NCBI GenBank assembly: GCA_044892525.1
Contig: CM097885.1
Location: 32,676,001 to 32,740,000, forward strand
Direction: 5' to 3'
Source of the DNA: Schmidtea polychroa
Taxonomy: Eukaryota
Length of the DNA: 64,000 bases
This document shows, one piece after another, positions 1-18,360 of this stretch. Under the pieces are notes generated by a model. The model worked only from the letters and a program-made list of their open reading frames with translations, made no database searches and was not told where the DNA came from. The stretch's first letter is position 1, and every line of letters begins with the position of its first letter. A program made the translations under genes and the position numbers.

Positions 1-1
1 T

Positions 2-3000
2 CTAAAGAGCGGATACTGGCAAATTAAAGTTAAAGAGGAAGATAGAGAAAAGACAGCCTTTACCATCGGAAAAGATTTATATCAGTTTAAAAAGATGCCA
101 TTCGGATTAACAAATGCACCTGCTTCGTTTCAAAGATGTATGAACTTTGTGACACACGGAATTAAACAATGTATGGTGTATATTGATGATCTGTTAATTT
201 ATTCAGGTACTTTCGAGCAACACTTAATCGATATCAGAAACGTCTTCATAAGACTGAAACAATGGAAGCTGAAATTGAAACCGTCAAAATGCGATTGGGC
301 AAAGGAGAGAGTCACGTTTTTAGGACATATTGTGTCGGCAAAAGGAAAGGAACCAGATCCGAGAAACGTTGAAAAGATAAAAAATTGCCCGATACCAAAG
401 ACTGTGACTCAGGTACAAGAATTTCTGGGATTATGCGGATACTACCGCAAGTTCATCAAAAATTATGCAACTATAGCAAAACCAATTCAGGAACTAACGA
501 AAAAAGACACCCCATTTTTGTGGGAAAGAGAACAGCAAATAGCATTCGAATCGTTAAGAGATAAACTAATAGCCTCACCTATTCTAATACACCCAGATTT
601 TAAAAAGCCTTTTCTACTAGCAACCGATGCCAGTGGATATGCATCAGGAGCTGTGCTAGGACAATGGGATGAGGAGAAACGAGAAAGAGTCATCGGATAT
701 TATAGCAAGACGTTCAAAAAGCACGAAAAGAATTACTCAGTCACAGAAAGAGAAGCCTTAGCAATAATTCAGGCGATAAAACATTTCAAATATTTATTGT
801 GGGGACACGAGATAATTATTACTACAGACCATCAACCTCTAGTTTGGTTGGGCCAACACAAAGAAGCATCTAGTCGATTAATGAGATGGGCAATGCAGTT
901 ACAAGAATATTCCCCATACATCAAATTCAAGTCAGGAAAAGCAAACGCAAATGCAGACTGCATGTCGAGATTTGTATTTGAGGAACTCATGGATCATGAC
1001 GTCAGACGAATATGCCTGATAATCGCGGAAGATATCGATTTTACCAATCTAAAGAACGAACAAAAGGAAGACAATGAATTAAAACTAATAATTGAGTTCC
1101 TGGAAAAAAACGATATGAAAATATTCAACAACGATGATCGACTAAAAGAACACATGGAGAAAAATCGTCACAGATATACGATCGAGAAAGGATGGCTATT
1201 GGTAATGGATGGCGACAAACGATTGATGTGTCTACCAGAAAGTAGACGGAAAGAAATTATGATTCAATACCACGATGGTAAATTGGGCGGACATATGTCA
1301 GCCAAGAAAACAGAAGCAAGGCTCAAACAGAAATATTACTGGCCAAATATGAGCGATGACGTGAAAGAATGGATAAAGAACTGCCTGATATGCGCAACCA
1401 GAAAAACAACGGGCAGTAAACTAAAGCCACCATTGAAACCAATGCCGATACCGCCAGAACCGATGACAATGATTGCAATGGATGTAGTTGGACCACTACC
1501 AGAGACTAACAGTGGAAATGTGTATATATTGGTAATAACTGATTATCTGACTAAGTTCCCTGAAGCATTTGCGATGCCAGACCAAAAAGCACGAACGGTT
1601 GCAAGGATATTAGTGGAAGAGATCTGCTGCAGATATGGAACACCAAAACAAATCTTAACTGACCAAGGAACTAATTTCATGAGCGAGATAATAAATGAAG
1701 TGACAAATTATTTTAGAATCGCCAAATTGAGAACCTCACCATACCACCCGCAAACGAATGGTCAGACAGAAAGATTTAACGGCATACTAATAGACATGAT
1801 GTCCAATTACGTGAGTAAACATCAAAAGGACTGGGATGAATATATTAAGTTGTGTCTAATGGCTTATCGAATGTCAATACACTCAGCAACGAAAATGAGT
1901 CCGTTTAAACTCATGTATGGAAGGGAATGCAACATGCCGATGGATCTCGAATACCAACCGCCAATCTCACAATATATGGAAATAGATGATTATGTGACAA
2001 AGTTCAAAGAGAGAATGCAGGAAATATGGAAAACCGCAGGAATGAACATCCGATTCAACCAGGAAAGTTATAAAGAATTACATGATAAAAAGAAGAACGT
2101 GCAAAACCATCAATTTAAAGTCGGAGATTGGGTTATTATAGAAACACCCGAGTTAATCCCAGGAACAGCAAAGAAATTACAACGTAATGGCAGAGGACCA
2201 TATGAAATCATCTATGTAAACGAGAACAACGCTCGAGTAAAGTTGGTTAACAATCCACTAATTAGACCCATATACGTGAATACATGTCGATGTAAAGCAG
2301 TAGCGAAAACTGCCACTAAAGATCCAGAAACAAGGAAGATAATCACGAGATCACAAACAAATGCCACAACAGAACCAGAAGTAAGCGGTAGATTAACTAG
2401 ATCACAGACAAGACGGATATTCATGTTGAGGAGAGAAACAAGCAGCAGCGCCAATAAAGGAACCGAAACAGAAAGCGAAGCTGACGCAATGGCAAGGAGT
2501 CAAGCGACATGGAATATGACAGTAAAAATAGCACGAGAAATTGTACCAGAATGGGCCAATATAACCAATAAATACCAGGTATTAGGCAAACTAATGATAG
2601 TAGCAGAAAGATATGCAAAAGGACGAAGAAACGCTGAAGGAGTACAAGTACCGACTCAAATGTGTGAACTAGTCCGGAGATTACCAATCATGTTCCTAAC
2701 AAGTGATTTGAGTAATAACTGGCCAATCCATCATGCAGTCAAAGCAGGACAGGAAAAACGAGCATTAGAGATCATACGAATAATGGAAAATTGCAAACAA
2801 TCGACAAACGTTAAAAATAGTAAAGGGAAAACTCCACTGATGAAAGCCATAGCAATAGGCGCGTCAAGAGAAGTACTCAGAGAATTATTGAGAACGGGAT
2901 CCACGTTGAAAGAAAAAGACAATAAACAACGAACCATTTTACGTTACGCCGTCAAGTCAAAAAGACCTAGCATACTAAGCTTTATCACGGGAAATGCAAC

Positions 3001-5179
3001 AACCGAAGAAGCCGAGGTGTTGGGACAGAGCATTGAACCAATTCTGGAAGCCATCAGAGGAAACTTAGACAGAACAGCAGCAATGTTAATCAAATGGAAA
3101 CAAAACGAATTAAGAGCGGAAGTAATTGATATAAATCAATTCCAAAACAACGAAAATATCGTACTAAGAAGCGCCATATACTCAAGACCACCAATGCCAA
3201 AAACCATTAAAGCAATATTACAAAGAAATAGAGCAGAATTGACAGGTAATTGGTGGAAATGCACAAAAGCACATACGATGAAAAAGCAACTAGAAATACT
3301 AGTGTGGGAATGGCACCGAAAACAACGGAAATATCAAGGAACCAAAGAAGAACGAGAAAGTATCCACAACGATAAAAAAGAGATAATTAAAAAATACGAA
3401 GAGATGATCAAAGCGACAAATGTCGAGGACGACATTTTTGGGAAAACCCCGGGTGAGAGGAATGACGACGATGACGACGACGAAAGGATGGGGGATAACG
3501 ATAACAACCCAGAGGAAAACGACAGAGAACAAAATCCGGAGGGCGGAGAAACAACGGATGATGATGAGGAGTTGGAAGAAGACGACGATGACCAATGTCG
3601 AGGTGAAGATCAAGGATTCGACAAAACAGAAAACAAAAAACGAAAGTTCCCACTACATAGCATAATGTTTCGAAATCAAATCCAGCCAATCCTACTACAA
3701 AGAATATTTATAATATTAACATCTATCTGTTTAACGGAAACAAAAAATATGAGAATCGTAAGAGAAGCTTTCCAAGAAGGCGAAGTATTTATGATAAAAG
3801 TCAGCGATTACGACGGAAACGCCGTCGGAATATGTGTTCAACTAATGGAAGGAACAGGAGTAAGTTGTGATTTCAGATCGATAACAAAAGGAAAGATTTT
3901 TAACAGCCAAAAAAGAGACCCCAGGCTATGTGGAGATTATGACATTTGTAAAGACATAACAACAGAGGAAATGGAACTAGAAAGAGCTAATGAAACCGGA
4001 GTACATTTCCAACTTAACATTTTGGAAGAAGGTATCGAAATAGAAGATAAAGGGAGTCGATCAATTACACATGTATGCATCAGAGAAGACAGAGACATAT
4101 GCATAATAACTGATATGACACAAGACCACAAATTCTTCTGGGGAGAGGTCAAACCAAATACCCCTACTGTGGTATGCGCAGGAACACAAGGGATAGTAGT
4201 GTGTAAAGGAACAAGAACTGCACCAAGAAAAGACAAACCAAGGAGTATGGCAATTAAACAAGGTCCATTGACGGAGAAAACAACCAAGAAGCCCAAGAAA
4301 TCAGTTAGTACAAAAACAACAACAGAGCTAAATCGAAGCGAATTAATAACAACAACAACATGGATTAACGAAGTAATTAAAGACGAAAGACGGGAAGTGC
4401 AGATAACTATTAACCTCAACAAGAAAGGTGAAGAGGTAATTACAGTCAAAAACCAGGAAGGAGAACCAATCATAAGGATATGTGTAATGGATAAGACGGG
4501 AATAATCGACTGTACAACAACACCGATAGACAAAGGTACAGACGTTAAAATGGAGACAGGGAAACGGAAAGAACGATACCAAGTATGTATCCTTAAGAAA
4601 GGAAGAGGAACCAGCGTATGTCAACCAATAACTCGACAAAAACCCCAATTAATAAACATACCGTGGATACCCCGAGATCAAGAAGGGGGAGAGAAACGGG
4701 AAAATCACAGTCACCTAACAGAAAAAGAGAAGGAACGATTACATCAAGCATTCAAGAAAATCAAAGCACCAGAAACAAATACCACAGGTAGTACAATATT
4801 AACGACAGAAAAAACAAATAATGGAACAACGATCATCACAAAGATGATATGGATAACTAGCGCGATAGTAAGCACGATAATAGCGTTAGCAATGATTCAG
4901 TGGATAAGAACCACCAAAAGATGTAAACAAAAACCGAGAAACCAAAGAAAATGGCCCAAAGTGGAAAAATTTGAATACGGTATTCCAACAGAGAATCTGA
5001 ATCTAGAGGAATACGAGGTGGTAGAGGATCCCGGATCCAGCGGATTGTGGATGTCGGAGCTACCAAGAATACCCACGCCCAACGAATGGACACACGAAGT
5101 CGATATATACCGACTAACGGACGAAAGATATGGGGGAATGCGCACGCTGCATTCCGGTCCCATGGCGACACTGGTATAA
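2..5179 (+). CDS. pol: Pol polyprotein (5'-partial): RT, RNase H, integrase with GPY/F, then ankyrin repeats, acidic tract, Cys-rich region, TM helix and cytoplasmic tail
   Basis: Frame is open from base 2 (LKSGYWQI...KTAF...MPFGL). YIDD at 179-190; RNase H TDAS/EALAI/TDH; HHCC (HDGKLGGH..CLIC); DDE (MDVVGP, TDQGTNF, QTERFN); RGPY ~2192; ankyrin-like WPIHHAV, GKTPLMKAI, RTILRYAV ~2714-3090; TM MIWITSAIVSTIIALAMIQWI 4844-4906. Confidence 0.95.
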   Translation, partial: LKSGYWQIKVKEEDREKTAFTIGKDLYQFKKMPFGLTNAPASFQRCMNFVTHGIKQCMVYIDDLLIYSGTFEQHLIDIRNVFIRLKQWKLKLKPSKCDWAKERVTFLGHIVSAKGKEPDPRNVEKIKNCPIPKTVTQVQEFLGLCGYYRKFIKNYATIAKPIQELTKKDTPFLWEREQQIAFESLRDKLIASPILIHPDFKKPFLLATDASGYASGAVLGQWDEEKRERVIGYYSKTFKKHEKNYSVTEREALAIIQAIKHFKYLLWGHEIIITTDHQPLVWLGQHKEASSRLMRWAMQLQEYSPYIKFKSGKANANADCMSRFVFEELMDHDVRRICLIIAEDIDFTNLKNEQKEDNELKLIIEFLEKNDMKIFNNDDRLKEHMEKNRHRYTIEKGWLLVMDGDKRLMCLPESRRKEIMIQYHDGKLGGHMSAKKTEARLKQKYYWPNMSDDVKEWIKNCLICATRKTTGSKLKPPLKPMPIPPEPMTMIAMDVVGPLPETNSGNVYILVITDYLTKFPEAFAMPDQKARTVARILVEEICCRYGTPKQILTDQGTNFMSEIINEVTNYFRIAKLRTSPYHPQTNGQTERFNGILIDMMSNYVSKHQKDWDEYIKLCLMAYRMSIHSATKMSPFKLMYGRECNMPMDLEYQPPISQYMEIDDYVTKFKERMQEIWKTAGMNIRFNQESYKELHDKKKNVQNHQFKVGDWVIIETPELIPGTAKKLQRNGRGPYEIIYVNENNARVKLVNNPLIRPIYVNTCRCKAVAKTATKDPETRKIITRSQTNATTEPEVSGRLTRSQTRRIFMLRRETSSSANKGTETESEADAMARSQATWNMTVKIAREIVPEWANITNKYQVLGKLMIVAERYAKGRRNAEGVQVPTQMCELVRRLPIMFLTSDLSNNWPIHHAVKAGQEKRALEIIRIMENCKQSTNVKNSKGKTPLMKAIAIGASREVLRELLRTGSTLKEKDNKQRTILRYAVKSKRPSILSFITGNATTEEAEVLGQSIEPILEAIRGNLDRTAAMLIKWKQNELRAEVIDINQFQNNENIVLRSAIYSRPPMPKTIKAILQRNRAELTGNWWKCTKAHTMKKQLEILVWEWHRKQRKYQGTKEERESIHNDKKEIIKKYEEMIKATNVEDDIFGKTPGERNDDDDDDERMGDNDNNPEENDREQNPEGGETTDDDEELEEDDDDQCRGEDQGFDKTENKKRKFPLHSIMFRNQIQPILLQRIFIILTSICLTETKNMRIVREAFQEGEVFMIKVSDYDGNAVGICVQLMEGTGVSCDFRSITKGKIFNSQKRDPRLCGDYDICKDITTEEMELERANETGVHFQLNILEEGIEIEDKGSRSITHVCIREDRDICIITDMTQDHKFFWGEVKPNTPTVVCAGTQGIVVCKGTRTAPRKDKPRSMAIKQGPLTEKTTKKPKKSVSTKTTTELNRSELITTTTWINEVIKDERREVQITINLNKKGEEVITVKNQEGEPIIRICVMDKTGIIDCTTTPIDKGTDVKMETGKRKERYQVCILKKGRGTSVCQPITRQKPQLINIPWIPRDQEGGEKRENHSHLTEKEKERLHQAFKKIKAPETNTTGSTILTTEKTNNGTTIITKMIWITSAIVSTIIALAMIQWIRTTKRCKQKPRNQRKWPKVEKFEYGIPTENLNLEEYEVVEDPGSSGLWMSELPRIPTPNEWTHEVDIYRLTDERYGGMRTLHSGPMATLV

Positions 5180-5325
5180 CGAGAGGAGGAGTTGTTGTAA
5201 ATAATGTATAAATGAAATGATAAAAGTAGTGATAATAGTAGTAGTATGTACAAATAAAAATAGAAAATTAAAACAATATGTAGAAAATCAAAAACAAGTA
5301 TGATGACCATGTATTATAAATAGGA

Positions 5326-5781
5326 ATGAACCAGAGAAACGAATAGCAAGAACACCCAAATGGGATACCACATGTTGTTGAAGTAAGAGAACAGCCGCTA
5401 ATGAATGTACATCCAGTAGACATGATGGAAATGAACGTGCCAAACCAGCCGAGTCAGCCAACAGGATCCATGTGGAGGGCACAGTGTGAATTAATGACCC
5501 AATTGACAAATCAGACTCAAGAGCACTGGGTACGAAACCAAACGGCGTTGATAGAGAGTATTAATAGAAATGCAATATATATTACAAAAATAGAGGAACA
5601 ACACCAAATAATCGCGTAACTAGAGTATAATAACAATCAGTTAATAAGCCAAATCAGATGGCAAGCGGAAGAAATTAGAAGGTTGCATGAAAATCGACAA
5701 CATGATGATATTACCAGTTTAGTCGAGTGGATGACCGGGTTACCAGGAACAGGGGAACCGGACTCGACGGTAGATGTATAG
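5326..5781 (+). pseudogene. Disrupted cargo ORF, small coiled-coil protein
   Basis: ATG at 5326 follows an AG. The frame runs to TAG 5779-5781 with two in-frame stops (5344, 5617) and includes the listed 5401-5619 ORF; QAEEIRRL resembles motifs in the other coiled-coil ORFs. Confidence 0.6.
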
Positions 5782-5870
5782 GAGAGAAAGGAGTGAAATG
5801 TAAATAATCCTGTAAATAAATAGAGTTATAATCAAGTAGAAATCCCAAGATTAAAAATCATCATTGTAGA

Positions 5871-7294
5871 ATGCAAAACAAAGCAGAGGAAAACCGGAGA
5901 GAAGCAGAGGAACAAAAGATTAACTATGAGTTGATGAGAAAATACCAAGCCGAGCCGGACGAGTTCGAAGAGAGATTATTATGTGCCGATACAGCATGTA
6001 GAAGATTATTAATTGGAGCAAGTCAAACTCGATGCGGGTGTAGATTGTGCCGAGGGTGTGATATAAGATTAGCCAGACTAAAGCGAGAAACTTGTCCAGG
6101 ATGTGGAGAAGCATTTAAGTTGGTTCCCACTGGTACGATACCGGATAGAGCAATGAACCGAGAAATCAGAGAAGTGAAAATAAGATGCACCCAAAGGTCA
6201 TGCGAATGGACAGGCCGAGTAAAGGAGTTAAGAGCCCATACAGACGTATGCGAATATCTAGAATCGGAATGCGAAGCATGCACGGTAAAGTTGTTACGAA
6301 AAGAGAAAACCAAACATAAAGGGGAATGCGAAGCGCGAACGGAAAAATGCGAATTTTGCGGAGAAACTGCTAATTGGAGAGAAATCGAAATGGAACATCG
6401 AAACGCAGTAGAAAGACGGATTTGCGACGAATATACAGGGAAATGCCCAAACGAGTGTGGAGAAATTAACAACGTCAGATTAAATGAACATTGGGAGATA
6501 TGCACGAGAAAAGCAATAAGATGCCCAATGGTGACATTCGACTGTAGAGCACAATTACCAGCAGAAGAAATGAAGAAGCATGTGGAGGAGAATACATTCG
6601 AGCACATGCAAAAGATGATGAGAGCAATAGAGTTAACAGCAAGAGCAATTGAAGACGTCAAAGACGAACTCAAATCACATAAAATCATGATAAAAGAAAT
6701 GCTGAGCTCACAGGAAAGCTTCGAAAATACGAGAGAAGCCGTAACACAAAGGATGTTGAAATTAGACGACAAATTAGTCGAAGTAACTAAATTACAAACC
6801 AAATGGACTACAAAGGAACTGACAACAGAGGAACTACCAATACTACCATACATGTGGAAAATCCAAGGAATAACGGAAATAATGGAGCAAGCAAAGCAAG
6901 GAATCCAGACAACGATAGTGAGCAAACCATTCTACGCCAAGAAACATGGATACAAGATGAAATTGAGATGGTTTCCAAATGGTGAAGGAAAGTTTAAAGA
7001 TCGGTGCATGTCCATATATATGCAAATTTGTAAAGGAGATTTTGACGACCTAATAGCATGGCCATTCCGACATAGATTAAAAATATCTCTCTTAGGAGCA
7101 AAAAAGACACATATAATGTGTTTTCGAGCATCCAGTCCAGCAGGGAATAAACCGATTACAGAGGTTAATCCTGCGGTAGGAGTAGCAGAGTTTATGCAGC
7201 TATACAATTTAATGAAGGGTCCTACATAGAAAAGGACACTATATTCTTCCTAATCGAACTAGATGAGGAAGGACCAACAATAGAAATACGATAG
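5871..7294 (+). CDS. TRAF-family protein (RING, TRAF zinc fingers, coiled coil, MATH); frameshift near 7220
   Basis: RING-like CADTAC..CGCRLCRGC..CPGC; CEWTG..H..VC zinc fingers; MATH SKPFY..GYKMKLRWFPNG..SIYMQICKGDFDDLIAWPF. The last MATH strand SYIEKDTIFFLIE is in a shifted frame (7220-7294). Confidence 0.92.
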
Positions 7295-7434
7295 ACGGAT
7301 AGAAGGGAACTGTAAATATTTTGTAAAAACGATGTAAAGTAAATATAAAGTTATTGTATACAGTAAAGTAACTTGCCAAAACCATAAAAATTAGAAAAAG
7401 AAAATGTAAAAAGAAATGATGAAATTTATTATAG

Positions 7435-8613
7435 ATGATTAATCAAGAGAGACCGAATATCCGAAAGAAAACGATCACAATGAGAGAGGAAGAGGACAAT
7501 ATGTCACCTAGAGAAAGAGTGAAGGATGCGGAAGTCAGCAAAACAAAACCAAGTAGTTACGCATATTATCGAAGAATGGGAAACGATTATAATTGGGTAC
7601 ACGAAAATTTGAAACTGGGAGATAATGAACAATTCAGATGTGAGAACCAGAGATATCTGTCATTTGAAGATCAGACCATTTTCACCAAGGAACAGAGCCG
7701 AGCGCTAGCACGCGACGGATTTTTCTTCTCCGGAAAACCAGAGATACCCGATCAAGTAACGTGTCGTTTCTGTAAAGGGAAATTAGCAGAATGGAAAAAA
7801 GGAGAACACCCAAAGGAGGAACATCGTAGACGATTCCCAACTTGTCTATTCGTACTGGGATTTGATGTACACAACAAACCGGAAATCAAATACGAAGCCT
7901 TGGAGAAATTGAAAACTGAAGACGAAAAAGGAGGGAAAATGAGCATCGCGATAACCAGAATCGTTGATGAGTATGTTCCAACTTGTGAAGGGGAATTCCT
8001 CACGCAAATAGCAGATAATAGAATGAAAACGTTCGGAGATGATACGAGAGGACCTGAATTAGCAATAAGAGGGTTCTACCTAACAGAAAATCAAATACTA
8101 AAGTGTGAAAGATGCGAAAGCCAACAGAGATTACCGGAAGAAGGCATACCAGAAATTAGACATCAAGCATGGTGCCTATATCACAACGAACAAGAAACCG
8201 AATATCCGGAAGTACTAGTAACAGAGGAAGAGGTTGACGAAGTGGTAGACAAACCCAACATGTGCAGAGCGTTGAAAGCAGCCGGAATAGGCACGACAAG
8301 GGCAAAGAACATGATTAGAGAGAGACTACAGAAAAATGTACATATACCAACAACAACGTACGATATGATCAGAGCGATAACCCAGTATAGAGAAAAACCT
8401 GAAACAAAAATAAAAGAAGAATCAATAGTCAAAACAGCTATCTTACGAGATATCAAATGTACTATGTGTTGGGAGAGGAGTGTAGAAGTTATTCATATGC
8501 CATGCGGACATTTGATCGCATGTGCCACGTGTAGTAGGAAAATAAAAGAATGTCCAATGTGTAGACAGAGGATTGCGCAGCGAATCAAAGGATTTCGCTA
8601 CGCCGATCAATAA
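7435..8613 (+). CDS. Inhibitor of apoptosis (IAP): BIR, degenerate second BIR, UBA-like region, C-terminal RING
   Basis: BIR1 RYLSF..LARDGFFF..DQVTCRFC..W..H....C; BIR2 RMKTF..LAIRGFY..CERC..H...C; RING CTMC..PCGHLIACATC..CPMCR. Confidence 0.95.
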   Translation: MINQERPNIRKKTITMREEEDNMSPRERVKDAEVSKTKPSSYAYYRRMGNDYNWVHENLKLGDNEQFRCENQRYLSFEDQTIFTKEQSRALARDGFFFSGKPEIPDQVTCRFCKGKLAEWKKGEHPKEEHRRRFPTCLFVLGFDVHNKPEIKYEALEKLKTEDEKGGKMSIAITRIVDEYVPTCEGEFLTQIADNRMKTFGDDTRGPELAIRGFYLTENQILKCERCESQQRLPEEGIPEIRHQAWCLYHNEQETEYPEVLVTEEEVDEVVDKPNMCRALKAAGIGTTRAKNMIRERLQKNVHIPTTTYDMIRAITQYREKPETKIKEESIVKTAILRDIKCTMCWERSVEVIHMPCGHLIACATCSRKIKECPMCRQRIAQRIKGFRYADQ

Positions 8614-8696
8614 CGAAAAATAAAAATTTCGTGTATAAAGTGTAGATAATAAATGTATGAAATAATAGTAGTAGTAATAGTGTAATTATTTAGACA

Positions 8697-10295
8697 ATGA
8701 ATAAAGAATCACAAACCTATGTGGAAACCGAGATGCAACAACTCGAACAGTACAAATCCATCATACAAACATACGAAGCAGAAAGAGTAAAGAGAGAAAT
8801 AGAAATGTACAAAACCATGTATGAGAAAAAGCAACAAGAGTTAGAAGTGGAGAAGGCGGAAACACTAGCAGCAAAAGAGAAGTGGATGAAACAGGTAGAG
8901 GAATTAACCGAAGATGTGAGAAATACATCAACATACCAAGAATTGGAGGAGGAGCTCTCGAACTTACGAACTCAGCGGATTATGGAGATAGTTGGGTTAT
9001 GCGGAGAGATAATAATGCAGAAGACACAAATTAGAGAAGCAAAGGAGCAATACGAGGAAGAACAGCGTAAAACGGAACGAATAAAACTACAAGCGCAACA
9101 ATGGAAACGAAAATACGAAACCCTCCAAACGAGGCAGAATGATAGTCACGAACATCAAATACGAGGGTATAAAGTAGAACTAGAAGAAGCAAAGAATCAA
9201 TGTGCAATGATGAAAGAAAAATGGGAAAGATGCAAAAGGACCCTAAGCGAAGTCAGGGGACAAGGGAGGAGAACACCACGTAAAGAACCAATCGTTAAAG
9301 ATAACGTATTAGAGCGAATTAACGCACAAATAAAGATACAAGCTCAGAAATGGAAGTATAAATATCTAGGAAGTCAAACCCAAGTGCTCTATTGGAAAAT
9401 CAGTAGCAAGGAACAACTGCGATTACGAAAAGCAGACCAAGAATTTTACGAAATAAGGGCTACACAGCGAGAAGAAGAGGAAGTAGAGTGGAGAAAACGA
9501 CAGCAGAAATTTGAGGAAACCGAAGAGTGTCTCAAGCATCAAGCCCGAAAATGGAAAAAGAATTGGAAAGAGACCAAAGAGGAGTTAAGACAGTTACCAA
9601 TGAAACTGATGGAAAGAGACGAATTTAAAATGTGGGAAACGATAGAAAACCAAAAAGATGAGATCAGCCGATTGAGTAGAGAACATAGAATCAAGACGCG
9701 GACCAGCGACGGTAGACGGAGAGTCATAAAGAAACAGACTCGAGAAATAAGAAGGTATGAATACCAGGAAAAGAGATGGGAACAACAATTGACAGACCAA
9801 GATCGACAGATCCGACAATTACAAACAGAGGTAGAGGAAGCTAATCAAGAGATGAACGGATATAAAGGTATGTACACCCAAAGGGATGTGAATTGGAAGC
9901 ATCAGATTGCGCTTAATGCGAAATGTAGAGAGGAGTGCGATAAGGCAATTCAACAAGCCAAACAGGAAACCGAGATAATAAAACGATGCTTCGAAGAAAA
10001 TGAAGCGAATCTGAGAGCAGAAATCGAGAAGTTGAAAATGCTTGAAAAAACCCAACGATTGGAAGAGGAATTGGATGAGATGATAGAAAACGAAAGTAGA
10101 TTAACGTTTCTGTTGGATGAAGAAATAAACATCGCAACGGAATTGCGGGAGGAAGTAGAGCGGTTAAGAAGACAACCACCAATACTATTAATGCCACTCT
10201 ACCCGTTCCCATTACAAGTGCCACAGCCTGCCGAAGTTACAGCAGATGAAGGCTTCGAAGAAAATAACGAACAAAATAACGCAACATGGATTTAG
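8697..10295 (+). CDS. Long coiled-coil protein of unknown function (cargo)
   Basis: 532-aa intact ORF, E/K/Q/R-rich heptads, internal repeats QAQQWKRKY / QAQKWKYKY / QARKWKKNW, Pro-rich tail. Confidence 0.85.
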   Translation: MNKESQTYVETEMQQLEQYKSIIQTYEAERVKREIEMYKTMYEKKQQELEVEKAETLAAKEKWMKQVEELTEDVRNTSTYQELEEELSNLRTQRIMEIVGLCGEIIMQKTQIREAKEQYEEEQRKTERIKLQAQQWKRKYETLQTRQNDSHEHQIRGYKVELEEAKNQCAMMKEKWERCKRTLSEVRGQGRRTPRKEPIVKDNVLERINAQIKIQAQKWKYKYLGSQTQVLYWKISSKEQLRLRKADQEFYEIRATQREEEEVEWRKRQQKFEETEECLKHQARKWKKNWKETKEELRQLPMKLMERDEFKMWETIENQKDEISRLSREHRIKTRTSDGRRRVIKKQTREIRRYEYQEKRWEQQLTDQDRQIRQLQTEVEEANQEMNGYKGMYTQRDVNWKHQIALNAKCREECDKAIQQAKQETEIIKRCFEENEANLRAEIEKLKMLEKTQRLEEELDEMIENESRLTFLLDEEINIATELREEVERLRRQPPILLMPLYPFPLQVPQPAEVTADEGFEENNEQNNATWI

Positions 10296-10325
10296 TCGGA
10301 GAGAGGTTGCCTGTAAATAAGAATG

Positions 10326-10355
<30 letters not shown>
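10326..10355 (+). repeat. A30 homopolymer in a cargo spacer
   Basis: 30 consecutive A, shortly after TGTAAATAAG. Confidence 0.95.
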
Positions 10356-10360
<5 letters not shown>

Positions 10361-10454
10361 AAGCCAAAACCAAATAAAAATTACAAATTACAAAACCAAA
10401 AATTCAAAATAAAAGGGAGACGAAAGGAAAAATGATGTGTATATTTTTGTAGAT

Positions 10455-11165
10455 ATGAATTATTTAAAAGACAGAGAATCAACGAGTAACGCAAGAAAAT
10501 CAATTGACCAACCTGAACAAAGCCAGAATACGATACCAATCAAACAAGAACCGATGAAATATTATAGTAATAAATGGAGAGTCAGCAAGAAGTTGTTCAA
10601 AACAAAAATCGCAAATCAAAATGTAGAGATTACGAGATTGAGACAGCATATTGTTCAATCAAGACGATTAATAAACACTGTCAAGCAGGAAATTTTGAGG
10701 GAAATAAATGAATCGAAACTAAAAGAGACGGAAAATAAAAACCTGAGACAAGAGATAGTAGAGTTGAGAGCTCAGGCAGTAATCGAAGACTATTGGAAAT
10801 CAGAAACAAGGAAGTTGAAAAAGATTGTGAATATCGACCAAGTGTATATCGAACAATTGGAAGCACAATACGCTTATGCAAAAGCGAGAATGCGGGAAAG
10901 TAAAAAGGTCGACAAGAGAAACGCAAGACTCAAGGAGGAGATCAAGGAACAAAGAGAGGAAACAGAAAAACAATGGAAGTTGAAAGAGAATTATCGGAGA
11001 ATTTTAAATCAAAAACGACGAAGCATGCAAGCACTGCAGACGACAATGACCATCAGACAGAGAAAATGGAAAAGTGAAGAGAAGCGATTACAAGAAATGC
11101 CAGAATTAAAGAGACAGTTGATGGCAACGCAACTCGAAGTAATAAGGATGAACGAGTTGAGTTAA
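10455..11165 (+). CDS. Coiled-coil protein of unknown function (cargo)
   Basis: First ATG at 10455 after TTTTTGTAG; basic coiled-coil composition; IANQNVEITRL resembles IENQKDEISRL in the preceding ORF. Confidence 0.8.
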   Translation: MNYLKDRESTSNARKSIDQPEQSQNTIPIKQEPMKYYSNKWRVSKKLFKTKIANQNVEITRLRQHIVQSRRLINTVKQEILREINESKLKETENKNLRQEIVELRAQAVIEDYWKSETRKLKKIVNIDQVYIEQLEAQYAYAKARMRESKKVDKRNARLKEEIKEQREETEKQWKLKENYRRILNQKRRSMQALQTTMTIRQRKWKSEEKRLQEMPELKRQLMATQLEVIRMNELS

Positions 11166-11297
11166 GACGAGCACCTGAACCTCCCGTAAAATTAAGGGAT
11201 GAGGTCGGTGGCTCCCAATAAATGAGATAAAATAACTGTGTAAATAAATTGTAAATAAAGCCAAGTAATTATTATTAACGTATATGTATATGTAAAG

Positions 11298-12284
11298 ATG
11301 AGAAGCCTAACCGTGGTGATAATTATAATGACAATGCCCAGAATCCTGCAAGCTGAAGAATCAATGATCAGATGCCAGAAAGAATACCCATATCGCAGAG
11401 AAGATAGCACCTGTAGTAGCTTTAAATCAATCTGTGAAAAACCCAATGAAGAATGCGAACAAATCAAGTTGCAATGTTCGCAATGTCCACAAACAACTGG
11501 AAGTTCGACGGAAATGCAAATGGCTCAGACAATGAAAACAATATTAGAACAAGAAATGAAAGTTATCAGAACCCAGATAGCAACATTAGCCAAACAATTC
11601 CAAAGCCAGAAATCAAAGAAAGAAACCCAAACGGATCCGGCCGCAATGAGAATGATGGTAATAATATTAGAGGAAATAAAACAACAGGTAACAGCAACCG
11701 CCAATGGACGTTCAAGCAATTGCGAAATAGTAGTAAAATCTTTAGAGGAAATGAAAGGGAAAATAACTTCCATCATCAAAGAGGAACCCAGCATTAAAAA
11801 TGAGGTAACGAAAACATTGAAAGAAATGACAAAAGAAGTCCTAACTACCATAAACAAAAACCCAATGAACTCCGAGAAGATGATTAAAACCCTGGAGGAA
11901 ATAAAGAAAGTTGTCAACTCGGAAGAAAACAAATTCAACAAACCCGAAAAATCAGAAATTACAGATACAACCCAATTGGGAGAAATGATAAACAAACCCA
12001 GAGTAGTAGAACTAAGAGAATCTGAACCCCTCACAATATTGATCCTATTAGCGGCAAGCCTAATGATAAACATTACCGTACTGAGCCTGATTGCACTCAA
12101 ACCCAATTCCAGTAAAGCAAGAAACAAAACCCTCAAACTAAAAGAACAATCAAAGAATATTCATATCCCAATGGAAGAACAGCTAATCCAAACAACGAAC
12201 CAACCAAGATACTTCAAATCTTCCCCAAACATCGAAACCAGAGCCGTCATCGAGACGAGATCCCGAACAACAGAATTCTATTAG
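11298..12284 (+). CDS. Type I membrane protein: signal peptide, 6-Cys domain, helical stalk, TM helix, tail with PxEE (TNFR-like or env-like)
   Basis: N-terminal MRSLTVVIIIMTMPRILQA; C-x12-C-x6-C-x6-C-x6-C-x2-C; repeated KTLEE(I/M)K-type stalk units; TM LTILILLAASLMINITVLSLIAL; PMEE at 12168-12179. Confidence 0.85.
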   Translation: MRSLTVVIIIMTMPRILQAEESMIRCQKEYPYRREDSTCSSFKSICEKPNEECEQIKLQCSQCPQTTGSSTEMQMAQTMKTILEQEMKVIRTQIATLAKQFQSQKSKKETQTDPAAMRMMVIILEEIKQQVTATANGRSSNCEIVVKSLEEMKGKITSIIKEEPSIKNEVTKTLKEMTKEVLTTINKNPMNSEKMIKTLEEIKKVVNSEENKFNKPEKSEITDTTQLGEMINKPRVVELRESEPLTILILLAASLMINITVLSLIALKPNSSKARNKTLKLKEQSKNIHIPMEEQLIQTTNQPRYFKSSPNIETRAVIETRSRTTEFY

Positions 12285-13298
12285 TGTGACATCATGACAG
12301 TAAAAACATTTCACGACATTATAAACGATAAATCATCCTGATCGAACAATTGATTTCAAAGACTGAGACTACGATTAATGACACTGATTCTTGAGCATGA
12401 TAATGTTATTTTTATGTGGGCCGACCTCGGTCGTTCTTTTCCTTCATCTTTCAACCCATCTGTAAAATGTAGTGTAATAGTAGCATTTTTATGTATGTGG
12501 GTATTGAGGTCACGACCCTGTAGCTCGTGGACCCAATTTGCATGTAGGCACTTGTAATATAGTGCAAGTATTCTGAAAATTAATCTTATTCATCTTTGGA
12601 TTTAAATTGCGGGTCGCAATTTTATGGGCCCCCGAGTGTTTTATGTTGGGCTAGAACTGATTTCTAGACCCAAACTACTAATTGTGACTGAAACGTGCAG
12701 GTACACAACATGTAAAAAGCAAAAAGTATAGTTAAATATTAAAACCTACACCAAATAAACAATATTAACTAAAGGAGAAAGCAACAAAAACATAAACAAA
12801 GAAATTAAATAAAATTATACAGAAGCAAGAAGTGATGCAAAAATCTAACTCAAAAATAACCAAACAAACATAGAATTACCAAAAGCAAACTCGAATAACT
12901 TAAAAGACGATAAAAATAGTAAAACATTCCAGAAAGACCCAGAACATTCTATAAAATGGCGATGACCATCACAAAAGTCATCTAGAACAACAAAAGTTAA
13001 GGAAAATAAATGAATTAGTATTAAAAATAAAAAATCTCAAAAAGAAATTCATAAAAACATCAGTTAAAAATAAAAATTAAATTAAAAGTAAAATAGAATG
13101 TTCTGGAACCGTTCCAAATCCATCATGGACGTAAAGTAATGAAAAAATAATTAAAAAATAAAAATTTAAAAATAAAAACAAAAATTATAGCACAAAAATT
13201 TCCACAAAAAATATAAAAATCATGAAATAGAAAATTCTGGAATAAAAAGAATTCGAGTTTGTTTTAACGCATCAATACATACACGTGTACAAAATAGG

Positions 13299-13307
13299 TA
13301 TATATAC
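13299..13307 (+). promoter_or_regulatory. Candidate LTR TATA box
   Basis: TATATATACTG at the switch from A-rich to T-rich + strand; equivalent position to TATAAATACTG (~20756) in the short LTR. Confidence 0.4.
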
Positions 13308-16202
13308 TGACACGTTTCAGGCACATTAAGCATTATTTTGTTTATGCCAATATTTTATTAGAAATTTTCCGAAAATTATTAGTAAGTAGATTTTTCTTTT
13401 GTTATTCGATGTTATCATGATTAATGTAACTATTTTAATGTAGATTAATATCCATAAGATCAATTTCTTTTTATTTTTTATCTTTTATTAAAAATTTTTG
13501 TTTGAATACGACTGATCAGCGGCGTCTCAGTGCGTCTCTGTTCAGTCCTGCATTTGATATTAACAATTTTTGAAACATGCAGACATGCCATATTCTATAT
13601 ATATATTTTTTTTTGTTTGGTCATCGGAGGTCGGCCACTTCATGGTTCTACCATGGAGTTGTGTCGATAAAACCCCTCCGCTATGGCTCTATATGCTTTA
13701 TTTATCGGTCGACAGTGATGTTTCGACTCAACACAACAGTAGGGCTTGTCGTAGCGGTCACAGTGGGGCCGTGTAAGCAAGCATTCTTCCCGAGTACAAG
13801 CAAACATATTTAATTTCAACATTAAAAATCGTAGACAATAGGGTACACTAAGGTCATAATCGAGTAGATCTCAGACCCAAATTGAACACAGCAATTACAA
13901 TTCAGCTAATGTAGTCGGTTAAGACCTCTCCACTTACACGTTTGTCGAACCTCATTGAGAAATAATTTTTCGTATCAGTGTAAATGTCTCTCTCGAAATT
14001 GACCGTAATGATGCTCACGAAGGAGTTCGACAAGCGTGAATCGTAAAATGAACTATATACTCTCCTGTTACACTTAAACATCAGGCTATAAATGTATAAT
14101 GTTCCTAAACTATAGAATATATGTTAGAATTGCTAAATACTTAGAATTCCTAAATGGTAAAACATAACTTACTACCGTACTTAGAATTATATGTGATAAA
14201 TACGTAATACCTCTAAATTACAAATATGAGTTAATATTGTCTTCAAAAATATAATTTATAAAAGTTAAATTGTCAAATACCTCTTAATACTATGCCTGAA
14301 AATAATGCGGAATATTCATAAATTATAAAATTTTACTTTATACTATCCTCAAAATTATAATCTATAAATGTGTAAAACATAATTTATAAATATGAAATTA
14401 TAATATACATGCTTGAAAAGCAATTTTAAAAATGTGTAATATTCCTAAATTATGAAATTTTACCCTATATTATTCTTAAAATTATAACTTATACCTGTGT
14501 AAAAATATAATTTATAAATGTCAAATTGTAAAATATAACCTAGTACTATGCTTGGAGGTATAATTTATTATGAAATATAACCTATTTCTATACTTAAAAA
14601 TATAAGTTAAAAAGGTACGTAAATAATTTTTATTGTACCTAAAAATATGATTTATAAATATGTAATATTACTAAATCATAAGATTGTATTGCTTGTGGTT
14701 CGTAAATCTTACCTTGAGATTATCAGTAGCAAACTAAAATGTAAACTCATACTACGTATAAATTATAAATTATATCTTAGTATTTTCTGTATAAAAGTAT
14801 AAAGTCATGCTACTCATAAAGTACAAATTATGTCTTAGAATTATACACAAAAATATAAACTATAGGTTTATATTGCCCATCAATTATAGAATGTAACGTA
14901 TGCATAGAATGCAAATTACAAACTATAAGGTATGATTTTGGTTATAAGTTATAATTTCGGTATCCATAAATACAAATTATAAATTCCAAAGAATAGAAAC
15001 TATTACTAGCTATATATAGCTCATGAGTCCGTAAAGTGTAAATTGCAAGGCTGAAGTGTGGATTATGGAATAATTATATAAAGTATAAACCGTAGATTAT
15101 TTTTATAAAAGTATAATCTAATTATATGTCTAAATTATAAAATTATATATCAAAATTATCTATCTAAAAATTATATATCTAAATTACACCTCTAAATTAT
15201 ATATCTAAATTATATAAACTTATAAAATACCATCGTAAATTTAGATTACCAATTATAAACTATGATTTCATACTCCATATAAGGTAAAGGACCAAATTCT
15301 GAATTCTAAGTTTATATTTCGTATATAATTGATGAATGACGAATGTATAAAATGTACAGTTGCGTATGCGAAATTAGCTAGGTTATAATTAACCCCTACG
15401 CCAAAATCATGGAGTACAATGACAAACATAAAGGAGAAGCACGCCCGACCTCTAGATCGGAAACCGCAGTGAAGCTTGACGGTAATTTAATTAAAACTAA
15501 TTTAACATCCAGTCGAAAGAGAGAATAATATTTAACATTTATTTTACAACATCAAGGTTCTAGTGGGCTGAACCAGGATTGCCGAGAGAAGTTCATTGTG
15601 GGCTGGAGTCTTGCATACTCCAGCTGTTCCCGCTCGTTGCTGGGAATTGCAAATAGGATTGACAGTTGCGGATAATTCCTGAACTTTACGAATCTACTAA
15701 TTTTAAATTTACAGTCTAACTTACTTCGAAGGATCCAGATGAATTGCAACACAGAAGGGAATGAATCTAAAAATCTAATATACCAAAATAAACTAAATTT
15801 ATCAGAAAAAAGTTTTTAAATATTTAAAAGCCTTATAATTACATGTATTTAAAATTTACTATTCAAAACCATTGTAGTTTACTTTAAATTTGACCTTATT
15901 ATGATTGTTACGATAAAACACCGTAAAATATGATTAATTGGTAATTTCCGCGTAAGGTAAATTTTAATGTATAGTGAAAGACTTGAATTTTAATTTAAGC
16001 AAAAGTTGAGGGTACCCTTTCAAGTACAATTTAAGTTAATCTGATTAATTGTTTAAATTATGAACATTTGGAGTTTGTTTCGTATTTTAAGCAAATTTTT
16101 TTGTTGTGTGTGGTTTCATATTAGCCCGCGAGCGTTGTAGCAGAGAGAAGCGTTCTCGTTTGCATTGTGATAACCTTATTAATCATTGCTACCCAAACAG
16201 AT

Positions 16203-16568
16203 ATGTCACACTCAGACGACTACAGCGATGATGACGGCTACAGACAAATAATCACCCGGCTCCGGTCCCGGTACGTCTGGTTTCACATCCATCGGTGGAG
16301 CCAGGGACGGGACTTAGATTGTTCCAACCAAGTAATCCGGACGGGCCCCGAAGTGGATGCCCCGGCGTGGGTAAAAGTAGAGCCCACCAACAACGTGCTC
16401 CGGGAAGCCCGCGATCGAGCGGCCGATGAGGTGGTGGAGGCCCAAAAGCGGCTGAGGAGACTCGAGCTCCAACTCAAAGCCGAAACACTGGGGGTAACTC
16501 TTGAAGAGCTGGAGGAGACCGACACCCCTCCACGAAAACGGGGAAGGCCCCGCAAGAACCTGGCCTGA
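16203..16568 (+). CDS. LTR-encoded small protein with coiled coil and C-terminal AT-hook
   Basis: GC-rich ORF in AT-rich surroundings; ATG directly after ACAG|AT; PRKRGRPRK at 16530-16556. Confidence 0.7.
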   Translation: MSHSDDYSDDDGYRQIITRLRSRYVWFHIHRWSQGRDLDCSNQVIRTGPEVDAPAWVKVEPTNNVLREARDRAADEVVEAQKRLRRLELQLKAETLGVTLEELEETDTPPRKRGRPRKNLA

Positions 16569-16881
16569 CTCATCGACAGGCGCGGCTTGAATGGAATGGT
16601 TTTGACTGATTTCATCCAGTGATATTTTACCTTGTAGTAGCATGACGAATTGTATTTTTCTTTTGTTCGTTAAATCTTGACAATATAGTCTATCGTGTAT
16701 CTTCGTAGTGCAATAAATTAATTTTTGTTTCGCTATTACATTTTGAACTTTATAGCTAATGGGGTGTATTCATGATTGAGGTGCCCCTTTTCTCATCACC
16801 CACTTATTAATTTCATGCACGTACTCTAACCAACTTTGCGCACCTGGATGCGAGCGATGGAATTTATTATTATTTTCTTCA

Positions 16882-17316
16882 GTGTACCAGTTATTGGAAA
16901 ACCTACGAAAGGACCGCGAACAGGCCCAGCAACAATCCGAGGGTCTCCGAGGTCGGGTCGAAAAACTCAAGCTGAAGTATCGAGAACTCCAAAGTACGTG
17001 GTTCAGTCCGGCCGACATGAAAAAACAAACTACGCGCATCTCACAACTCCAGACCCAGGCGGAGCAAGATCAGCTCGAGATCCGAGCGCTGAAGCTACAA
17101 GTGCGCTCGCTCGAGAGTAAATTGAACGAAAGGATTGTCCAGGACACCCTTTGCGAGCAGATTCGTCCTCTTGCCGTAGAGTTGGCCCGGATATACCCAC
17201 CGGCCCAGACGAACAAGCCGAAACGCAAACGGTTAGGGCGGAACACCCGAGAGAAATTGAAAAGGGCCTGGCTGGCCGAGCAGGAGAAAGGGAAAGAGCC
17301 GGAAGGCAATCCATGA
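16882..17316 (+). CDS. LTR-encoded coiled-coil protein with basic NLS-like tail; needs splicing or a GTG start
   Basis: GC-rich ORF beginning at a strong acceptor TTTTCTTCAG; heptad pattern; KPKRKRLGR. Confidence 0.6.
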   Translation: MYQLLENLRKDREQAQQQSEGLRGRVEKLKLKYRELQSTWFSPADMKKQTTRISQLQTQAEQDQLEIRALKLQVRSLESKLNERIVQDTLCEQIRPLAVELARIYPPAQTNKPKRKRLGRNTREKLKRAWLAEQEKGKEPEGNP

Positions 17317-18360
17317 TCTTGGGAGGCGTTCGAGAGTGCGTGAACAATCCGTGTAATATGGTGGTGGCTTAATAAATGAGTCTTGTTATTTAATGAGTAT
17401 GAGAGTGAACTTTGCTGTTGTCAAAAACAGGATGGTTGGCGGGAAGGCGCTTGGAAAAACAATCTCGATGAGGGACCGAAATAAATCGGACACGTGCCTT
17501 CTATCGGCGTCCGTGAACCCATAGAGTGCTCGACAATTACAGTGCTTGGCGCGCTCACTTTTTGCGAGTACTCAACCCCTTGGTACAGTACCAACGTTGA
17601 TTGCTCAACGGGTACCAAGAGGAAAACAATGTTGTATTCTGGGTTACGCTGGTAACAGCACTTAAACATTCAACCACCAGTAACCCACCATGACTTTCAG
17701 AATATTTCTTATATATTTTGATGCCCCTTGCTCGCTTCGCCTGTTCTCTCATAATAAATTGTCACTACATTTTTTTATATAATATAAAGAGTAAAATAAA
17801 TTTGAGAATTTCACTAGGTGCCGCTTGTAAAGAATTTGTGGTGGCTAACCTATATCTAGGCGCAATTCGTTCAGTCGGTAATTTGTTAAGATCTTTTAAT
17901 TTAAATACGGAAAATTCAACTTTGAATTTTGAAATGAATCATTTTTTAACAAAAATGGTTAAAAATCTTTACTACTGAGAAAATTGAATAAAAGTGAACA
18001 ATTATTATTAATTATTTTTTAAATTAATCAAATTTAATTATTTAAATTTTATATCTTCTTTACCGCGGTAAATTAACCAAAATGGCTAAAAATGAAAATT
18101 TTGTGGGTAATGAATGCGTAAAAAAATATTTATACTATTTTAATATCAATTTAAACGCAATTTTAAATTGAAGATGTAATGTATCGGTGCAAACAAATAT
18201 AGTTTAGGATAATAGATGAAGAAGCTTCACCACTCGTGTCTTAGATACTACTGCATATCTCAATATAATGAAATATTTCAATTATAAATAACAAACGTTT
18301 TATATTTTGTCGTTTTTTTCATATTGAATATTAATTATCTTGAACATAAATATATTTCAG

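Follow-up and report, generated by a model that had tools for sequence, protein, structure and literature searches.

The window analysed here, a 64,000-nt stretch of the Schmidtea polychroa genome (assembly GCA_044892525.1, contig CM097885.1, positions 32,676,001 to 32,740,000 of the forward strand), contains, at positions 1-17690, the 3' half of a Burro-type Gypsy element that is young and 35.5 kb long. The single long polyprotein of this element ends in a membrane protein that we name GP2. The signal, cysteines, transmembrane (TM) segment and tail of GP2 are under purifying selection across copies of the element, and the slot behind the integrase is similarly filled in all four sister families examined. 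Tentatively, and with a little less than even confidence, we propose that in GP2 the element has a second, conserved membrane protein of type I, which signal peptidase likely releases from the polyprotein and which likely serves the gB-type Env as its partner in attachment or adhesion.

The frame that contains GP2 opens before base 1 of the window and closes at 5179; joined to the upstream genome stretch, it forms one open reading frame (ORF) of 4,791 residues. Pfam matches upstream of the window comprise zinc knuckles, a MATH domain, the Monjiviricetes fusion glycoprotein PF24664 (E 4.9e-69) and a protease (PR), and those within the window comprise reverse transcriptase (RT), RNase H (RH), integrase (IN) and ankyrin repeats (ANK), with TRAF and BIR-RING ORFs farther downstream. 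The PF24664 match places a gB/chuvirus-type Env between gag and pol, upstream of PR. Because a fusion glycoprotein is thus already encoded upstream, GP2 appears to be a second membrane protein of the element and not its fusogen. An earlier note on this DNA had entertained an unusual envelope protein; in the sense of a fusogen this is rejected, as GP2 has no Pfam match to a PF24664-like fusion ectodomain of ~600 residues and is predicted to carry small beta domains instead.

Sequence searches beyond the genome returned no relatives of GP2. There were no homologs of near length among 5,476 candidates and no shorter ones among 1,020, the Atlas gave no usable match, the PDB sequences gave none, and nothing in Pfam rose above the cut-off. 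The sole match among 1.84 billion representatives, P0007, is a tandem-repeat ORF whose score is the sum of 12 weak stretches, and it was set aside as an artefact.

Layout of GP2 and selection across its copies

GP2 has the predicted build of a type I membrane glycoprotein, that is, a signal, a luminal part with N-glycosylation sequons and paired cysteines, a single TM segment and a basic cytosolic flank, and the Env upstream has the same internal-signal build. The parts are listed below with their ratios of nonsynonymous to synonymous change (dN/dS), which were taken from variants common to at least two copies and are rough figures because the copies share descent and had been chosen for their similarity.

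3665..3745, + strand: internal signal segment, core at 3704-3736, basic upstream; non-conserved ATG at 3665; cleavage likely after CLT or LTET; dN/dS 0.16
3746..3967, + strand: ectodomain D1, four Cys including the pair at 3923-3949; putative fold, from likeness to D3; dN/dS 0.12
3989..4219, + strand: ectodomain D2, four Cys, with a worn FN3-like G-x-V-K-P-N-T segment; likeness to D3 at p 0.0003; dN/dS 0.09
4220..4387, + strand: stalk 1, Thr/Lys-rich (27% Ser/Thr), one sequon, the least constrained part; dN/dS 0.49
4388..4639, + strand: ectodomain D3, a predicted immunoglobulin (Ig)-like beta-sandwich of seven to eight strands with Cys pairs on neighbouring strands; AlphaFold2 predicted local distance difference test (pLDDT) 76-89; dN/dS 0.20
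4640..4843, + strand: stalk 2, three sequons, delimited by composition and dN/dS (0.18)
4844..4903, + strand: TM segment followed by a basic stop-transfer, from hydropathy and charge; changes conservative apart from singletons; dN/dS 0.18
4904..5179, + strand: cytosolic tail of 91 residues with YEVV and YGGM (YxxPhi) and the class I PDZ-type end ATLV, retained with its stop in 45 of the 46 copies covered; dN/dS 0.11

All of the motifs quoted in the earlier note lie in frame at about the positions it gave, including the signal-like IFIILTSICLT (3704-3736), the Cys motifs GICVQLMEGTGVSC (3827-3868), HVCIREDRDIC (4070-4102), VVCAGTQGIVVC (4169-4204), RICVMDKTGIIDC (4475-4513) and QVCILKKGRGTSVC (4580-4621), the TM segment from 4844 with its basic stop-transfer, and YEVV (5012-5023) and YGGM (5129-5140). 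No other stretch of the 1,725 residues encoded in the window is as hydrophobic as the signal-like or the TM segment (2.61 and 2.73 on an 11-residue Kyte-Doolittle scale, the next reaching 1.87). Charge is +5 ahead of the signal core and 0 behind it, and +7 in the 15 residues behind the TM segment. The Thr-rich stalks with sequons that the note described are likewise present, with 27% and 19% Ser/Thr in stalks 1 and 2 and five sequons in all (3989, 4331, 4703, 4778 and 4820). For the tail, the note recognised both Tyr motifs but overlooked the conserved C-terminal ATLV. Class I PDZ ligands have the pattern [ST]-x-[VIL] at a free C-terminus, and ATLV fits this pattern as a putative ligand.

A search of the genome's proteins with GP2 yielded 576 candidates, the best 85 of which were scored and proved 96-100% identical; 81 of these 85 are free of stops over the 504 codons, and about 40 belong to frames of at least 4,770 residues. 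Searches of the same genome for more distant members of the GP2 family returned only copies of 85-100% identity. Codons were compared with 49 other copies (the 29 top DNA matches plus 20 more divergent ones), any given part being covered by 44-48 of them. As controls, dN/dS is 0.01 for the integrase, 0.17 for the ankyrin region and 0.20 for the acidic spacer that follows it, and variants found in a single copy give 0.34-1.14 across the parts, matching the decay expected after insertion. The 12 ectodomain cysteines show four changes in the 49 copies, each confined to one copy, and the stops in the GP2 region are scattered, with one position hit twice. The check on conservation that the earlier note had proposed thus comes out in its favour, for both the hydrophobic segments and the cysteines, and the retention of the cysteines together with purifying selection rules out a chance ORF or an artefact as the origin of GP2.

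The copies also bear on where translation of GP2 begins. Codon 3665 is Val in 40 of 44 copies, Met in two and another residue in two; Met 3665 is therefore rejected as the initiator, and this favours release from the polyprotein. Along with the predicted topology and the in-frame fusion, the non-conserved Met supports the note's suggestion of a surface glycoprotein released from a polyprotein.

Ectodomain fold and the same slot in sister families

The earlier note had read five related Cys motifs as a repeated ectodomain. A sixth pair, RLCGDYDIC (3923-3949), had been missed, and the six pairs fit a model of three beta domains of ~80 residues with two pairs each, D3 being predicted and D1 and D2 proposed by likeness to it; five independent repeats were accordingly rejected, the motifs reading better as hairpin staples. 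Single-sequence AlphaFold2 prediction of the ectodomain is confident only at 4388-4660 (pLDDT 76-89, seven to eight strands). Both RICVMDKTGIIDC and QVCILKKGRGTSVC fall inside D3 with each Cys pair on neighbouring strands, and from these strand positions the two pairs are presumed to form disulfides. Ig-like sandwiches rank top for D3 in VIA-align, and Foldseek gave no match in the PDB or BFVD at E <= 0.001. The N-terminal half of the ectodomain consists of two segments of like length with four Cys each, and global alignment against shuffled sequences relates both to D3 (p 0.0013 for D1 and 0.0003 for D2; 0.002 and 0.003 with Cys positions kept).

Whether these domains descend from FN3 was considered separately. 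Pfam fn3 has no match in GP2, D2 carries VKPNTPT without the Tyr of L-x-P-x-T-x-Y, and no FN3 chain stands among the best 50 VIA-align rows, which does not count against FN3. The D2 segment GEVKPNTPTVVC aligns with GNLQPNTNYTLC of sister family H at an hhalign probability of 1.5% and a shuffle p of 0.003-0.011, these being the best few of 24 comparisons. The Cys-rich ectodomain may descend from three FN3 domains that have changed greatly, or it may have been captured independently into this slot.

That slot, comprising a signal, beta ectodomain, stalk, TM segment and tail behind the integrase, is filled in four of four sister families examined (A, C, G and H), which are 44-48% identical to the Burro-type family over RT-IN or 54-59% over the integrase; an integrase tree of six rows placed the Burro-type family without support. 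Families A (3,334 residues; RT-IN 48% identical) and C (copies broken) came from the PF24664 family search, and in both Pol ends with a signal, a beta ectodomain, a TM segment and a short tail. Family H was found through a Bcl-2 search. Sister ectodomains bear segments of the L-x-P-x-T-x-Y type, and that of family A gives a weak Atlas FN3 signal of 0.94, with recognition below the reliable range. The C-terminal ends of families A, C, G and H read ETRL, ETWV, ETEV, and STLV or SSLV, so that a class I PDZ-type end occurs in five of five in-genome families, against about 0.023 expected per protein. In the short tail of family A, PPSY (PPxY-type) directly precedes YETRL (L035:4165-4194).

Outside this genome, a search with Env among longer proteins gave two matches in 3,999 candidates. 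In P0002 the slot is likewise present and includes an FN3-like segment, and P0003 stops ahead of RT. The Env-Pol polyprotein of P0002 also contains three aspartyl-protease matches, one of them between the integrase and the second membrane protein. GP2 resembles the FN3-type second membrane proteins (L035, L040, L070, L088 and P0002) in position, topology, stalks and Tyr motifs and, for those in this genome, in the PDZ-type end; it differs in its three putative Cys-stapled domains, 12 Cys, 91-residue tail and the ankyrin block in front.

No TRAF or IAP cargo was found within the next 10 kb of one sister element, in which ORFs of at least 90 residues were read, and tblastn with the Burro-type TRAF, IAP and ankyrin proteins gave no match adjoining the family H slot. 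The slot therefore seems to travel with Env and not with the signalling cargo.

Candidate roles of GP2

The proposed course of events begins with translation of the one observed frame through Gag, Env, Pol and the ankyrin repeats. The internal hydrophobic segment would then return the chain to the endoplasmic reticulum (ER), as the segment before Env does, and be cleaved, leaving three small beta-sandwich domains, predicted for D3 and presumed for D1 and D2, to point outward on glycosylated stalks. The TM segment would halt transfer, and the tail, through its YxxPhi motifs and PDZ-type end, may sort GP2 to PDZ-scaffolded membrane such as that of cell contacts. Made 1:1 with Env, GP2 would finally hold particles, or the cells producing them, against a target cell, whereupon Env would fuse.

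Bunya-, flavi- and alphavirus polyproteins contain two glycoproteins that are freed 1:1 by signal peptidase at internal signals, and attachment and fusion are split between herpes gD and gB and between paramyxovirus H/G and F. The element would share with these systems the internal signals and the pairing of a fusogen with a separate ectodomain; however, GP2 has no sequence or fold match to their proteins, and in the element the whole cytosolic Pol separates the two membrane proteins. In a retroviral membrane protein that has YxxPhi and a C-terminal PDZ motif, these lie on the fusogen itself, whereas the element has them on GP2. We favour attachment or adhesion because the slot accompanies Env in every family examined, including compact ones with no TRAF or IAP seen nearby, and because a fusogen of the gB type usually depends on another protein for binding, as is noted in the consulted portions of PMC13524379.

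Several points nevertheless weigh against this proposal. That GP2 re-enters the ER, is cleaved, reaches the surface and particles, matches Env 1:1, binds target cells and is sorted through PDZ contacts is in each case an extrapolation from sequence features. For D3, the VIA-align score against a designed Ig domain (Z 8.9, root-mean-square deviation 2.5, 71 residues) is within the range reached by models without a clear match and indicates a common fold and no family. D1 and D2 lack a confident fold (pLDDT about 35 in a separate prediction and <50 in the full ectodomain), their likeness to one another is not significant (p 0.16-0.58), and the domain limits were set by eye, after looking. The PDZ-type end is absent from P0002, which ends in IQRM, and one of six other ORFs of the Burro-type element likewise ends in a class I PDZ-type motif. 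Ectodomains differ widely among the families, from one to three domains; between that of GP2 and the four sister ectodomains BLAST gave a best E of 0.023 and profile comparisons a probability of at most 1.5%, neither amounting to a match. Finally, the families are not independent trials, because they share a common ancestry.

This variety of ectodomains is as compatible with a decoy or a part in facing immunity as it is with attachment. GP2 might modulate the host surface by binding a host cytokine, immune receptor or entry receptor, for immune evasion or to block superinfection, and be dispensable on particles. Viral decoy receptors of such a build are known, and the predicted stalk-borne domains, Ig- or FN3-like and stapled by hairpin disulfides, the YxxPhi endocytosis motifs and the strong divergence of ectodomains between families are all in keeping with one. 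We nonetheless judge this role rather unlikely: selection on the ectodomain within the family is purifying and not diversifying, a structural role would suit a protein presumably made in a fixed 1:1 ratio to Env, and no host paralog of D3 was found among the best 150 of 422 candidates, those 150 being 96-100% identical, so that weaker paralogs could be hidden.

Viral constitutive receptor mimics also exist, LMP1 being an example, and the tail of GP2 could recruit the element's TRAF and IAP-RING proteins, or host adaptors, into survival signalling; the earlier note had raised a second signalling receptor as an option. Such a role would account for a tail of 91 residues, as against 18-41 in families A, C and H, that has two Tyr motifs and a dN/dS of 0.11 in an element with MATH and ankyrin domains and with TRAF and BIR-RING ORFs directly downstream, and the Burro1 IAP is reported to protect stem cells, according to the part of PMC13465017 consulted. 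It is an unlikely role, however, given that sister slots persist with short tails and no adjoining TRAF or IAP cargo in the stretches read. The GP2 tail, moreover, has no match to the TRAF2 major or minor motif or to the strict TRAF6 motif, only one loose PxExxH, although these consensus patterns are vertebrate and may not fit the TRAFs of this element.

If GP2 were instead made from its own spliced subgenomic mRNA, as the cargo ORFs may be, its fusion to Pol would be incidental. An AG-ending, acceptor-like stretch does lie 4 nt ahead of ATG 3665, and six downstream ORFs have AG 0-3 nt before their ATG. This origin is quite improbable, since just two of the 44 other copies have the ATG, the spacer stays open and conserved in every copy covered, the interval from integrase to signal is stop-free here and in intact sister families, and the cargo ORFs, unlike GP2, are separated by stops. 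No data set containing the sequence is recorded as RNA. Among contigs of four runs compared over 1500-13100, one spans 3587-4252, with no joint or loose end at 3660-3665 among those listed; the source runs are possibly DNA, so it decides neither way. That the module merely tethers Pol and the ankyrin repeats to the budding membrane, with the ectodomain as passenger, is conceivable from topology if the signal were uncleaved or slowly cleaved and so anchored the Pol C-terminus, but this is very improbable and largely refuted by 12 retained Cys and by D1-D3 and a tail as constrained (dN/dS 0.09-0.20) as the signal and TM segment.

The surrounding element and the significance of GP2

The remaining annotated features of the element are as follows.

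2..5179, + strand: 3' part of the single 4,791-residue Gag-MATH-Env-PR-RT-RH-IN-ANK-GP2 frame, the 5' part being L031:804-9998
2582..3340, + strand: ankyrin-repeat region, predicted cytosolic; Pfam Ank_2 E 1.3e-07; dN/dS 0.17
3341..3664, + strand: acidic in-frame spacer from the ankyrin region to the internal signal; stop-free in about 44 copies; dN/dS 0.20
5871..7229, + strand: TRAF cargo ORF, downstream, assigned by Pfam; 3' end shorter than in most copies
7435..8613, + strand: BIR-RING (IAP-like) cargo ORF, downstream; BIR E 1.6e-15 plus RING
12644..17690, + strand: 3' long terminal repeat (LTR), flanked by TGAC on either side of the element and with TG..CA termini; identity to the 5' LTR 99.94%

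The two LTRs are 5.05 kb each. Each also carries two ORFs of 147 and 178 residues (L032:5662-6853; the 3' LTR has the same sequence), and the 5' leader contains a RING ORF ahead of gag (L032:7952-8434). The element fits the Burro1/GYPSM1 type, being longer than 30 kb with long LTRs, one ORF of ~4,800 residues in the matching domain order and BIR cargo. Its proteins have no Pfam match to Bcl-2 or Smc; the BCL2-like and Smc-like motifs given in the review literature came from HHpred.

The cargo region (5180-12643) contains six ORFs (ATG at 5326, 5871, 7435, 8697, 10455 and 11298), each with an AG 0-3 nt before its ATG. TGTA[ACT]ATA occurs eight times in these 7.5 kb, mostly just 3' of stops, compared with once in 5.2 kb of pol and 11 times in 46 kb of flank, and the region resembles a cassette expressed by splicing or trans-splicing and furnished with elements that are Pumilio-like or linked to poly(A). 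The TRAF ORF seems frameshifted here, as several other copies have frames of 484-487 residues. In the IAP ORF, the N-terminal 140 residues (L050-L068) are 74-96% identical among copies, against mostly 96-100% for the integrase and 86-99% for GP2, and diversifying selection or recombination could underlie this variability. Two long coiled-coil-like ORFs at 8694-11165 (533 and 250 residues) belong to no Pfam family, and the first has a class I PDZ-type end. At 11298-12284 lies a third predicted membrane protein, again with no Pfam family, which has a signal, a Cys-rich N-terminus, coiled-coil-like repeats and a TM segment near its C-terminus.

The retroelements of which we are aware have been described with one envelope protein. 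The element class and its in-frame Env are already published. The planarian giant Gypsy Burro1/GYPSM1 exceeds 30 kb and has an ORF of ~4,800 residues with Gag-CCHC, MATH, an Env between Gag and PR, RT-RH-IN, ankyrin repeats and BIR cargo; the portions of that description consulted list no second membrane protein past the ankyrin repeats (PMC6431247). The gene order and gB-type Env are shared with the GAG-ENV-POL errantiviruses of the HSV/gB type (HSV, herpes simplex virus) from Platyhelminthes, Nematoda and Bryozoa (PMC13524379, in part). That survey checked Pol C-termini for chromodomains and calls entry partners unknown, and its main text, as far as consulted, does not mention fibronectin, immunoglobulin, accessory or ankyrin. 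We found no description of a second membrane protein after the integrase in the literature on these elements, although the original Burro descriptions may mention or annotate one. New here are the Burro1-type form with its three predicted Cys-stapled domains and long tail, the evidence against a separate start and the part-by-part analysis of selection.

A broader picture, which we regard as unlikely in its entirety, is that flatworm Gag-Env-Pol retroelements use two-component entry, in which a fusogen of the gB type is accompanied by an attachment protein of Ig/FN3 type that can be exchanged, sits in a fixed slot at the Pol end and is PDZ-aimed at junctions, and that the long Burro1-type tail also couples the surface to the element's own TRAF-IAP survival module. 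On a smaller scale, GP2 may aid adhesion of the element to cells nearby; this step is unexplained for gB-type errantiviruses, since HSV needs gD, gH and gL besides gB (PMC13524379, in part). Conserved and presumably made 1:1 with Env, GP2 is a concrete candidate for the entry partner lacking in that group. Additionally, in the portions of the sources consulted, expression of Burro1 in planarian tissues is reported (PMC8532177), as is a contribution of Burro1 to the survival of stem cells (cited in PMC13465017). It is therefore conceivable that GP2, with a tail that putatively binds scaffolds, could have an influence on host cell contacts or on signalling as well.

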